Source: Antechinus flavipes
Lineage: Eukaryota
Assembly (NCBI RefSeq): GCF_016432865.1
Contig: NC_067399.1
Location: 637,546,001 to 637,610,000, forward strand
Reading direction: 5' to 3'
DNA: 64,000 nucleotides
The first letter of the stretch is position 1; every line of letters starts with the position of its first letter. The position numbers and the translations under genes were made by a program. The notes under the pieces were generated by a model. The model worked only from the letters and a program-made list of their open reading frames with translations. It was not told the origin of the DNA and did not search any database. Below are positions 37,946 to 41,562 of the stretch, one piece after another.

Positions 37946-38581
37946 TGTTGGAATCCTTACTAACTGCTAACTAATTAGAGTTGATCTAATCTTACAAGAA
38001 GATGTTTTGGGCAGAACCTGAAACAAGGTACTAAGTAGAACTAATTAATACAAGGCTTGTGTTCACACCTTTACTCATTGGAGTTCAATGAGTTCACACC
38101 TCCCTTGAAGCTCTTTGGGCCAGAGAGCACTAGCATAAATAGAGCTTCAATGGGCCAGTCAAGGAAGTTCTTCAGAGTGAAGAAGCTACAAGTCGAGATT
38201 TCAGCGGAGTTACGCCAGAAGCCCTCTCTCCGAGGCAAGGCAGAATATTTTCCACTTGGCTGGCTGGTGGCAGAAGAAGTTCTTCAGAGTGAAGAAGCTA
38301 CAAGTCGAGATTTCGCCAGAATGACATGAAGAGTGGATCTGGCTGGAGGCTGAAGAAAGCAGAGGCAGAGGCTGAAGGACCAGACCTTTGGATTTGGTGA
38401 CACTCGGAGGGAGCTCTTGGAACCAAGCAGAGAGATAGGCCTCTAAGCTAACCGGGCTATATTGGAGATAATAAAAGATCTGAACTTTTATCACCTGGCT
38501 GCGTTTTGAGAAGAAAAAGCTCACCACATTTTGGTGCCCGAACAGGGACTGATTCAGATCCATCTGAACCAGATCACAACA
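37946..38581 (+). repeat. 5' LTR (636 bp)
   Basis: Differs from the 3' LTR at 6 positions by eye. TATA-like CATAAATA 38134-38141, AATAAA 38470-38475. Confidence 0.97.
38532..38549 (+). promoter_or_regulatory. tRNA-Lys3(UUU) PBS embedded inside the 5' LTR (17/18 match)
   Basis: TGGTGCCCGAACAGGGAC versus canonical TGGCGCCCGAACAGGGAC. Confidence 0.92.
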
Positions 38582-38584
38582 TTT

Positions 38585-38602
38585 TGGCGCCCAACGTGGG
38601 GC
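38585..38602 (+). promoter_or_regulatory. tRNA-Lys1,2(CUU) primer-binding site (18/18)
   Basis: TGGCGCCCAACGTGGGGC, 3 nt after the LTR-terminal CA. Confidence 0.95.
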
Positions 38603-38711
38603 TAACAGACCTCCTTAGTGGATTTCGGTGGAAAAGCTCTGATCCTGATTTCAAGTGGAAAAGCCTCTGATCCTGATCCAGTGGAAAAGACTCTTCAACC
38701 CAGAAATTAGG

Positions 38712-38717
38712 GTGAGT
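38712..38717 (+). promoter_or_regulatory. Probable major splice donor in the ERV leader
   Basis: AGG|GTGAGT, upstream of the gag ATG. Confidence 0.7.
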
Positions 38718-38765
38718 GCAACAAAGAAGTTTTGTTAGAAGAGTTAAAGTAGAATTTCAGCTAAT

Positions 38766-40442
38766 ATGGGACAGATATTTAGAAAACAGCCTGTTTCTGT
38801 TCATAGAAAATGTTTAGAGAGCATTGTCAAAATTATGGAAAGCCAAGGTTTAATTATAAGTTTACAGCAAATCACTGAATTTTTACAAACTGTAAAGGAC
38901 ATATGTCCTTGTTTCTCTCTTGATAAGGAATTAGATCTAAATGAATGGAAATTGGTTGGAGAGGATCTTTGTCAATTCTATGATGAAAATGGGCCTAACT
39001 CAATAATTAATACATATAATGTAATACAATTGGCTATAAGAAGTTATTTAAGTAATAGAATGATGAAAAGGAAAGTACAGGAGGAAGAAGTGCCAACTTT
39101 ACTAGGTGAAAAGGAGGACGAATCAGATGAGAATGGAGTTAATTACAATTCTGAGTATGATACTTCACAGCAGGAGGAATTAGGTGATTCCACATCTCAT
39201 GACCCTCCCCCCGCAATTAACCCTTCATGGGTGGAACAAGGGGGAGGGAGAGAGACAGAAATACAGTCAGCTTCTCCTGTAAAGCAGAATTTGACAAGAT
39301 TAGAAAAAGCATTAATTAAAGCAAAAAATGAAGGAGAAGATATATCTGATTTTATAAATGCATATCCTGTGATTGAAGAGCTCAACTCCTCAGGTCAAAA
39401 AGAGAGAAAATACACTCCTTTTAATTTGGGAAAAATTAAAGATTTGGAAAAGGGTTGCACTCTTTATGGTGCTACATCATCTTATGTGAAGATGTTACTG
39501 GATAATTTGTCTTATGAAATCTTAACCCCGAATGACTGGAAATCCATCGCTAAAACATGTCTTGAACTAGGACAAAATTTATTGTGGCTTTCAGAGTTTC
39601 ATGAATTATGTAGGATTCAAGCCCAACACAATAGGCAAACAGGACAAATCACTTTTGACCAACTAGCTGGTCAAGGTCAGTATGCAGAGAGTTCAGAACA
39701 GATTTATTATCCCACAACAGTGTATGAGCAAATTTCTAAGGCTGCAATAAAAGCTTGGAATTCTCTCCCTGGACAGAAAGATGGAAATAATGCTTTCACA
39801 AAAATAGAGCAAGGTCCCAATGAACCTTTTGCAGATTTTGTGGGACGTTTACAAACAGCTGTAATAAGAACCATTGAAGATAATGCAACCACAGAAATAA
39901 TGACTAGACATTTGGCTAAGGAAAATGCCAATGAGATTTGCAAGAGAATTATATGGGGGCTAGACAAAGATGCTCCTTTAGAAGAGATCATAAGACGCTG
40001 TGCCACAGTAGGCACAAATGCTTATTATACCCAAACTATGATGAACATGGAAAGACAAGGTCCTTCTTGGCAAAGGAATTATAGAGAAACTCGTCAATGT
40101 TTTCAATGTGGAAAAGTTGGACATTTGAGAGCTCATTGTAGATATGGAGATAGAGTGAGAAGACGGGGTGAGAGAAAACCCAAAACCCCATATCCAAAAT
40201 GCAACAGAGGCTTCCATTGGGCCTCAGAATGCAGACAGATTCAGGGAAACGGGATGAGGGGCCCAGCCCCAGGGCCCAAGGCAAAAAACACTTGGGGCAT
40301 GATGGCAGCCAATGGTGCACCCAGAGAGTGCCTAGAAGTTCAGTACCCAGACATGACCAATCAGCCAGAAAGCCATATGATGGGAGAAGGGGATTACACA
40401 GTCAACCAGCCAGGAAGCAACCTGATGGTAGAAGGGAATTAG
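38766..40442 (+). CDS. gag: Betaretrovirus-like Gag polyprotein, 558 aa, uninterrupted
   Basis: MG start (Gly2), p10-like MA (ICPCF...DLNEWKLVG), AY/PV capsid boundary, MHR IEQGPNEPFADFVGRL, zinc knuckle CFQCGKVGHLRAHC, second knuckle YPKCNRGFHWASEC. Confidence 0.95.
   Translation: MGQIFRKQPVSVHRKCLESIVKIMESQGLIISLQQITEFLQTVKDICPCFSLDKELDLNEWKLVGEDLCQFYDENGPNSIINTYNVIQLAIRSYLSNRMMKRKVQEEEVPTLLGEKEDESDENGVNYNSEYDTSQQEELGDSTSHDPPPAINPSWVEQGGGRETEIQSASPVKQNLTRLEKALIKAKNEGEDISDFINAYPVIEELNSSGQKERKYTPFNLGKIKDLEKGCTLYGATSSYVKMLLDNLSYEILTPNDWKSIAKTCLELGQNLLWLSEFHELCRIQAQHNRQTGQITFDQLAGQGQYAESSEQIYYPTTVYEQISKAAIKAWNSLPGQKDGNNAFTKIEQGPNEPFADFVGRLQTAVIRTIEDNATTEIMTRHLAKENANEICKRIIWGLDKDAPLEEIIRRCATVGTNAYYTQTMMNMERQGPSWQRNYRETRQCFQCGKVGHLRAHCRYGDRVRRRGERKPKTPYPKCNRGFHWASECRQIQGNGMRGPAPGPKAKNTWGMMAANGAPRECLEVQYPDMTNQPESHMMGEGDYTVNQPGSNLMVEGN
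40244..40298 (+). promoter_or_regulatory. -1 ribosomal frameshift signal (slippery heptamer plus H-type pseudoknot)
   Basis: G GGA AAC in the gag frame. Stem 1 GGGCCC 40259-64 with 40272-77, stem 2 GCCCC 40266-70 with GGGGC 40294-98. Same layout as the SRV-1/MPMV gag-pro signal. Confidence 0.9.
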
Positions 40443-40578
40443 GTTAACTGCTTGGGGAAGAGGATCTGCTTATATTTCCACAGATGAAGAAAGAATCAGA
40501 TGGCTGACAATGAGACTGTCAAAAGGACTCTTAAAATCTTCAGAAATCATTGGGTTCCCTGAGATGAAAAATTGTTGA
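40441..40578 (+). pseudogene. pol: Integrase C-terminal remnant
   Basis: Frame +1 relative to gag reads RLTAWGRGSAYISTDEERIRW, matching the betaretroviral IN motif WGRG(F/S)AC(V/I)S...W. Confidence 0.8.
40466..40483 (+). promoter_or_regulatory. env-type splice acceptor retained in the IN remnant
   Basis: CTGCTTATATTTCCACAG|AT, positionally homologous to the HERV-K env acceptor TTGCTTGTGTTTCACCAG|GA as recalled. Confidence 0.7.
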
Positions 40579-40910
40579 TGAGACCTTTTGCAGTACTTCA
40601 GAGCTTACAAGAATTATTAGATTCCTGGCACATGAACTAATGGACAATGGATTGCTTATGGACTATTTCTAGGACTTATGGACATGTGTAAATTTTCAGG
40701 TTGATTCATGTTGTTACATTACTACTAGCCTGTGTTATATTGCTATGTGCTTATGTAAATTATGTATAATGCCTCCCATATTGATGGATTTATGTATACC
40801 ATGTATATCGGTTACAAAGTAGTGGCCCATATTGATGGATTTATGTGTACCCCTTCAGAAACCCACTAATCTGATTAGATTTCCTATTTCCTTTGGTGTT
40901 TTCATCTAAC

Positions 40911-40926
40911 AAAAGAAAGGGGGAGA
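40911..40926 (+). promoter_or_regulatory. Polypurine tract
   Basis: AAAAGAAAGGGGGAGA directly before the 3' LTR. Confidence 0.92.
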
Positions 40927-41562
40927 TGTTGGAATCCTTACTAACTGCTAACTAATTAGAGTTGATCTAATCTTACAAGAAGATGTTTTGGGCAGAACCT
41001 GAAACAAGGTACTAAGTAGAACTAATTAATACAAGGCTTGTGTTCACACCTTTACTCATTGGAGTTCAATGAGTTCACACCTCCCTTGAAGCTCTTTGGG
41101 CCAGAGAGCACTAGCATAAATAGAGCTTCAATGGGCCAGTCAAGGAAGTTCTTCAGAGTGAAGAAGCTACAAGTCGAGATTTCAGCGGAGTTATGCCAGA
41201 AGCCCTCTCTCCGAGGCAAGGCAGAATATTTTCCACTTGGCTGGCTGGTGGCAGAAGAAGTTCTTCAGAGTGAAGAAGCTACAAGTCGAGATTTCACCAG
41301 AATGACATGAAGAGTGGATCTGGCTGGAGGCTGAAGAAAGCAGAGGCAGAGGCTGAAGGACCAGACCTTTGGATTTGGTGACACTCGGAGGGAGCTCTTG
41401 GAACCAAGCAGAAAGATAGGCCTCTAAGCTAACCGGGCTATATTGGAGATAATAAAAGATCTGAACTTTTATCACCTGGCTGCGTTTTGAGAAGAAAAAG
41501 GTCACCACATTTTGGCGCCCGAACAGGGACCGATTCAGATCCATCTGAACCAGATCACAACA
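40927..41562 (+). repeat. 3' LTR (636 bp) containing a perfect Lys3 PBS at 41513-41530
   Basis: Near-identical to the 5' LTR. AATAAA 41451-41456. Followed by the TSD. Confidence 0.97.

Follow-up and report, generated by a model that had tools for sequence, protein, structure and literature searches.

A 64,000-nucleotide stretch of the Antechinus flavipes genome (NC_067399.1, positions 637,546,001 to 637,610,000; here, the window) contains a compact endogenous retrovirus (ERV) of 3617 bp, at 37946..41562 on the plus strand, whose long terminal repeats (LTRs) enclose a leader, an open gag frame, and short remnants of integrase and env. It is genuine, young, and decaying, a gag-only form derived from a described marsupial retrotransposon clade and likely dependent on a helper. 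On the account that we consider probable, it is a young insertion derived from the env-less MEBrv3 retroviruses: a template switch during reverse transcription likely removed pro-pol; this deletion would have arisen before integration; a helper's protease, reverse transcriptase (RT), and integrase were likely used to integrate the already shortened form; and the Gag of this copy has likely drifted without selection since. Its LTR, which carries two primer binding sites (PBSs), likely came from recombination between related subfamilies or duplication within them.

Much of this has precedent. Deleted helper-dependent ERVs, gag-only LTR elements, and switching between tRNA-Lys3 and tRNA-Lys1,2 primer sites are already known; only for the twin primer site did we find no precedent.

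Age and parentage of the insertion

The element lies between two copies of a 6-bp target-site duplication (TSD), within an old host sequence that we take to be L1, and has an internal region of 2345 bp. Its LTRs, 636 bp each, differ at 6 of 636 positions, 4 of them CpG transitions, with no indels; an earlier note on this DNA had given the same values, which were re-derived exactly. Three-frame translation agrees with that note's open 558-residue Gag, and finds no protease, RT, or env frame behind gag. The main landmarks are as follows.

37940..37945 (+): left TSD, CCTAAT, single copy in the empty-site contigs
37946..38581 (+): 5' LTR, 636 bp, TGTTG...CAACA
38709..38717 (+): predicted splice donor AGG/GTGAGT (GT at 38712); by eye, a like motif stands in the leader of the MEBrv3 representative
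40443..40524 (+): C-terminal remnant of integrase, in a different frame from gag; weak Pfam IN_DBD_C match
40640..40672 (+): degraded env immunosuppressive-domain (ISD) remnant, as in MEBrv3; translation compared by eye
40911..40926 (+): polypurine tract
40927..41562 (+): 3' LTR, 636 bp
41563..41568 (+): right TSD, CCTAAT
37780..41900 (-): old L1 ORF2 C-terminal fragment, host sequence, split by the element

Presence or absence at this site was read from sequencing runs. Four of the 22 listed were compared (X1, X3, and X7, which are genome runs, and X8, whose library kind is unrecorded), and three were informative. Runs that share few words with the region, the two recorded as RNA among them, play no part in these results. 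X1 and X7 each hold one contig, at flank depth, that joins 37938 to 41562 with a single TSD; the site is empty. The TSD within an L1, whose empty site the earlier note had thought reconstructable, is thus matched by actual empty sites in two runs. X3 is filled: one contig (record 15) carries 35 LTR letters across the right junction, and a second enters the 5' LTR by 24 letters, below the 31-letter threshold. (The X3 left-flank contig stops 24 letters into the LTR, at 37946-37969, a stop that would fit thousands of LTR copies with a common start.) The flanks lack cover in X8, which is therefore uninformative here and is not taken as evidence of expression; over 37300-42200 its LTR depth is tens of times its gag depth, unlike X1 from the same organism, and the library may be biased or made from RNA.

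The insertion is species-restricted or polymorphic. Because the site is empty in two of three informative runs, the insertion is young, and the LTR pair dates it to 0.7-3.9 Myr if rates of 1.2-2.2e-9 per site per year are assumed. The divergence between the flanks and the window (X1, 10/1290 or 0.78%; X3, 7/1248 or 0.56%; X7, 37/1293 or 2.86%) is in line with the LTR-LTR divergence of 0.94% (0.33% without CpG sites). Betaretrovirus-like class II ERVs are characterised by a Lys PBS, a 6-bp TSD, a Gag_p10 matrix, and two CCHC knuckles; the first three are all present, and the description of the element as betaretrovirus-like, young, and non-autonomous stands.

Each flank matches other L1 pieces of the window at 67-83% (blastn), and the minus-strand translation of the flanks is a decayed ORF2 C-terminus, continuous across the TSD. 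Within the window there is no second copy of the element, no solo LTR, and no tRNA gene; none of 93 frames of at least 75 residues has a Pfam match to suggest a host gene, although short exons would escape such a search.

MEBrv3 is an env-less, IAP-like betaretrovirus clade (Harding et al. 2024, PMC11334065). As excerpted, that source reports that MEBrv3 averages 67.5% of gene-containing ERVs in dasyurids; that intact 7.3-kb env-less copies with identical LTRs occur in three dasyurid species; and that the clade retains an ISD remnant behind pol. It also gives a mean length of 1.68-1.84 kb, roughly that of one gag, for gene-containing ERVs in four dasyurids, and counts only 39 devil ERVs longer than 6 kb among 12,900. 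So short a mean could hide many gag-only copies, though a mean proves nothing.

By eye, the element resembles the MEBrv3 representative dvERV6989 in its Gag tail, leader donor and start context, integrase tail, degraded ISD, and 3' untranslated region (UTR); with the clade it shares a Lys1,2-type PBS, the absence of env, and very high copy number. The integrase-tail match (E 0.0017) falls under the curated Pfam cut-off, and the ISD identity comes from the comparison by eye. The element differs from the representative in several ways: it lacks about 3.1 kb of pro-pol between the gag stop and the integrase tail, and a further 0.5 kb or so behind that tail; its matrix and capsid are of another lineage; it has an extra Lys3 PBS; its 636-bp LTR is, by eye, unlike the representative's 469-bp LTR; and the spacer between LTR and PBS is TTT, an unusual 3 nt at both of its primer sites, against 2 nt. 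At 3617 bp and with a different LTR, it does not match the active MEBrv3 form (about 7.3 kb, gag-pro-pol, 469-bp LTR type). Because of that LTR, and because RT is gone, the element is filed as an MEBrv3-related derivative; to judge from its sequence, it is that and not the described form.

The Gag tail, integrase tail, ISD remnant, and 3' UTR all have counterparts in env-less MEBrv3, so the loss of env is inherited from the parent clade. That env went with the pro-pol deletion was considered and rejected, its absence being a clade trait.

MEBrv3-type sequence is indeed abundant in dasyurid genomes. The wider family occupies 23,203-44,775 contigs per genome run, with a summed depth of 1e5-1e6 beside a flank depth of 20-45; summed contig depth is not a copy count, and its use as one was rejected. 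Part of the internal region occurs in 20 of the 22 listed runs, from several organisms, and at least half of its words in 8. Thirteen of 21 Gag homologues carry the names Sarcophilus or Sminthopsis. A literature search, thin in subscription papers, found no report of a gag-only MEBrv3 form, and the main text of PMC11334065, as excerpted, contains none of the terms gag-only, non-autonomous, and PBS.

Gag and the deletion junction

The deletion joins the end of gag to the integrase tail, and three features define the region.

38766..40442 (+): gag, 558 residues (matrix, capsid, nucleocapsid); Pfam Gag_p10, Gag_p24, and Gag_p24_C above cut-off
40244..40447 (+): GGGAAAC heptamer in the -1 phase, with a short -1 frame that stops 67 codons on; no Pfam match
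40429..40443 (+): deletion junction; compared with the MEBrv3 representative, about 3.1 kb of pro-pol is gone

The junction can be placed only within about 40429-40443, because both sides share letters there. The earlier note had put the join more exactly, at TAG/GTTAAC (40440-40448). Undeleted neighbours likely exist on both sides, to judge from contigs: one from X8 (record 30) fits gag to 40441 with 3 differences and then continues for 72 unlike letters, and 13 from X3 enter at 40429. The earlier idea of a helper gains from this, since such relatives, and the intact MEBrv3 copies, could serve as helpers. The internal region had been described as leader plus full gag; leader and gag are there, but the integrase-tail and ISD remnants at its 3' end were overlooked.

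The break lies at most 10 nt from the natural gag stop, a position with a chance of about 0.4% (reckoned after the fact). The gag stop is at 40440-40442 and that of the -1 frame at 40445-40447, while the integrase tail lies in the third frame, so no fusion protein results. We take GGGAAAC to be the gag-pro slippery site; no fold behind it is more stable than shuffles (z 0.22). Among the listed loose ends (24 of 2923 rows), the 6 rows given for X1 or X7 include none at the junction, although neighbouring bins are deeply covered. This is a weak hint that many copies run through the junction.

We therefore weigh when the deletion occurred. That the element inserted already deleted, and dependent on a helper, seems rather likely. 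Whether the joined form is a multi-copy subfamily is an even call, and a one-off loss at reverse transcription is doubtful. In the competing account, a full-length env-less provirus integrated here and then lost pro-pol by genomic deletion at the short shared letters, so that the gag-only form never moved. Undeleted forms on both sides of the junction, the lack of a second junction copy, and the X8 contig that passes the gag end unbranched all sit well with such a loss. However, an age of 0.7-3.9 Myr, with rates assumed, would be short for a kilobase deletion to occur and leave both LTRs untouched; a random break would seldom fall at the gag stop; and trans-mobilised deleted forms dominate new insertions in mouse IAP and cattle ERVK. 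Loss after insertion thus strikes us as unlikely. The earlier note had instead argued for mobility from the survival of PBS, donor, acceptor, and polypurine tract; these are present, but the argument is weak, because any pro-pol deletion leaves them in place.

Return to the preferred account, in which deletion came before integration and Gag has drifted since. As the earlier note recognised, the open frame alone is no sign of selection: when neutral decay is simulated at LTR-derived rates, it survives 28-86% of trials, or 6-46% if the upper 95% rate is used. A change counts as private where, in each of the three genome runs, at least 90% of the depth disagrees with the window. The 40 rows of differing letters listed, of 241, include 14 in gag, 5 of which were set aside as shared variation; the 9 private gag changes among these rows comprise 8 non-synonymous and 1 synonymous. 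The neutral expectation is 72% non-synonymous (P 0.23), whereas at dN/dS 0.3 such a count has P 0.007.

The major homology region looks intact by eye. Of the two CCHC knuckles, the first is complete and the second is missing the first ligand, at residue 476; the zinc-knuckle Pfam match is below cut-off. Because 11 of 14 relatives examined have two complete knuckles, the incomplete one probably represents damage to this copy, and to call its gag "full" was too strong. With neutral-like survival of the frame, the 8:1 ratio, and the knuckle, the Gag of this copy looks unconstrained, although the source element could still have needed Gag.

Hence the earlier suggestion that the element supplies its own capsid is not supported for this copy. 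A broader form of that suggestion is a mobile parasite under selection for Gag: its own protein would package its RNA in cis, and only Pro and Pol would be borrowed, as with translation in the mouse IAP form I-delta-1. The break leaves gag whole and cuts the -1 frame short at 67 codons, and plant TR-GAGs share the layout. The mostly non-synonymous private changes and the incomplete second knuckle (complete in 11 of 14 relatives) speak against it, even if such defects bear on this copy and only weakly on its source. We rate the proposal as possible but improbable.

Host co-option, by which a defective Gag expressed from the locus would interfere with MEBrv3 particles in the manner of enJS56A1 or Fv1, is far less probable still. 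The frame is open, the LTR and leader are intact, a Gag with an incomplete knuckle could co-assemble, and enJS56A1 acts through a point-changed Gag. Yet the insertion is absent from two of three informative runs; there is no sign of constraint, survival of the frame being expected by chance; and thousands of relatives could supply such a Gag.

Gag is also a mosaic of lineages that switches near residue 471 (about 40178). The family thus plainly recombines, a point in favour of loss before integration, as are the letters that both sides share at the break. Residues 176-420, in the capsid, are closest to P0003/P0006 (81-88%), with P0007/P0032 at 56-72%; residues 471-558 are closest to P0007/P0032 (82-83%), with P0002/P0005/P0031 at 57-59%. 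The tail is nearly identical by eye to that of the MEBrv3 representative, for which P0007, close to it by eye, is a proxy. In two runs, 58 and 45 contigs of another subfamily enter at 40178, which corresponds to about residue 471. The mosaic may be a subfamily trait, because the tail of the P0003/P0006 lineage is absent from the comparison. (The stretch 40356-40441 of the Gag tail consists of about two 45-nt repeats, likewise in the MEBrv3 representative and P0007.)

Several points weigh against the account proposed here. With RT deleted, the RT/pol criterion for clade placement (PMC11334065) is inapplicable, and the LTR is unlike, by eye, that of the MEBrv3 representative. No second copy of the junction was seen, and no listed contig spans it; the junction pattern has 0 matches in metagenome contigs, a collection unlikely to include the host. 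The closest X8 contig does not branch at the gag end but continues into its 72 unlike letters, so in X8 the joined form is rare or missing. Short shared letters at the break also fit a repair-mediated deletion in genomic DNA. Finally, the 8:1 count comes from 14 gag rows among 40 of 241.

Protein searches added nothing of use. The integrase tail gave 0 hits from 1 candidate among longer proteins, and the Gag tail none among shorter ones; against cluster representatives the Gag tail gave 8 hits, of which three new ones (P0034-P0036) all end unlike this Gag. Among 62 stretches from metagenome contigs there was one distant Gag hit (L001, 27%), too remote for use, and among viral contigs 0 of 3.

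Twin primer sites and remaining features

The earlier note had found the PBS, but overlooked a second one inside the LTR, as well as the recombination in Gag. The relevant features are these.

38585..38602 (+): working PBS, 18/18 to tRNA-Lys1,2, 3 nt past the LTR end (PMC8775094, as excerpted)
38522..38549 (+): internal LTR-end-like CACCACA, then TTT and a tRNA-Lys3 site (38532-38549), 17/18 with one CpG change
41513..41530 (+): inner tRNA-Lys3 site of the 3' LTR, 18/18; PBS sequence as in PMC8775094, as excerpted
38470..38475 (+): sole AATAAA of the LTR, likely its poly(A) signal, which would put the inner PBS in U5

In each LTR the inner Lys3 site follows CACCACA-TTT; it precedes the Lys1,2 site by 53 nt, where the true LTR end reads CACAACA-TTT; the chance of such a match is about 6e-9 per LTR. 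Both sites are likely near the RNA 5' end, because the only AATAAA is 62 nt upstream. If the standard mechanism applied, this copy must have been primed at the downstream PBS, by tRNA-Lys1,2, because the Lys3 site was copied into both LTRs: minus-strand strong-stop DNA would carry the upstream site into each. From the same RNA, priming by tRNA-Lys3 would give an LTR of 583 bp. Against the LTR start, 6 of 10 bases pair for this short end and 8 of 10 for the long one; a fold of U5 with the inner PBS is no more stable than shuffles (z -0.22).

How did the second site arise? A recent exact duplication was rejected as its source: the 53-nt units match at 10 of 24 positions in the first part and 22 of 29 in the last. 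In LTR variants, 33-46 contigs per row diverge behind 38447/41428, a major branch point, so U3 is common to subfamilies with different R/U5. One X3 contig, weak as a single case, skips 38450-38551, the block with the inner site. With the unlike first 24 nt, these contigs point to a swapped U5 block as the probable origin. A bolder proposal is a mammalian gag-only family with two usable tandem primer sites, in which 636- and 583-bp LTR forms would interconvert, each round would refresh one site, and the spare primer would counter silencing by tRNA fragments; we regard it as a long shot. A literature search, swamped by unrelated uses of "PBS", found no report of an ERV LTR with a second intact PBS; this LTR may be catalogued in Repbase or Dfam.

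Other features of the element are a duplication within the LTR, a leader repeat, and a candidate acceptor.

38164-38203 and 38276-38315 (+): 40-nt duplication within the LTR, copies 112 nt apart
38621..38694 (+): leader tandem repeat, unit 26 bp, 2.8 copies
40482-40483 (+): predicted acceptor-like AG, inside the integrase C-terminal remnant

All ATG-started frames behind the acceptor-like AG are 35 residues or shorter, so a spliced product from it seems unlikely. In the 3' UTR (40775-40850), cccatattgatggatttatgt occurs twice, as a short imperfect duplication; a joint in X1 skips 40801-40849, so a one-copy variant exists. Elsewhere in the window, old L1 3' fragments lie in both orientations at 3177-4175, 14700-15580, 35570-36590, and 50660-50890, and include a 93%-identical pair at 34685 and 36500.

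Comparison with known systems

If the junction recurs, part of the dasyurid MEBrv3 load would be a helper-dependent gag-only subfamily that pol-based surveys miss. Such a subfamily would bear on the proposed link between MEBrv3 and marsupial genome instability (PMC11334065, as excerpted). The filled or empty locus is a clean population or species marker, and, if both primer sites are used, the priming tRNA could set the LTR boundary of a retroelement.

Among known systems, the mouse IAP form I-delta-1 likewise arose by internal deletion within an env-less class II family and relies on a helper, as the marsupial element likely does; the 1.9-kb deletion of I-delta-1 creates a Gag-Pol fusion that acts in cis (PMC6466679, as excerpted). 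In the marsupial element, by contrast, the gag frame ends where the deletion joins it to an integrase tail in a different frame, which leaves no in-frame Gag-Pol fusion. Deleted, trans-mobilised forms, namely cattle ERVK D-types and I-delta-1, dominate new insertions in their hosts. (PMC10924933, PMC4408412, and PMC2065879, also as excerpted, are cited for these comparisons as a group.)

The enJS56A1 and Fv1 loci share with the element an endogenous Gag that could act on related particles. Fv1 is an old gene without LTRs. The earlier note had named enJS56A1 as a Gag-only precedent, which does not fit: in the excerpted source it is listed among loci with intact env, a near-complete provirus with a 2-bp pol deletion and a selected Gag change. 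Unlike either, the element is young, not fixed across runs (it is absent from two of three), and shows no constraint, with private changes at 8:1 non-synonymous; loci of that type are fixed and under selection.

The SERV proviruses show that Lys3 and Lys1,2 sites can both occur within one betaretroviral group, each provirus with one or the other; the element has both in tandem, one inside its LTR (PMC8775094, as excerpted). In layout the element parallels TR-GAGs, which are shorter than 4 kb and have LTRs, a single gag frame, and no enzymes. Those are demonstrated plant families with a Copia or Gypsy Gag (PMC4350172, as excerpted), whereas here the Gag is retroviral and a family conjectural. 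The element works like a TR-GAG, but is not one.

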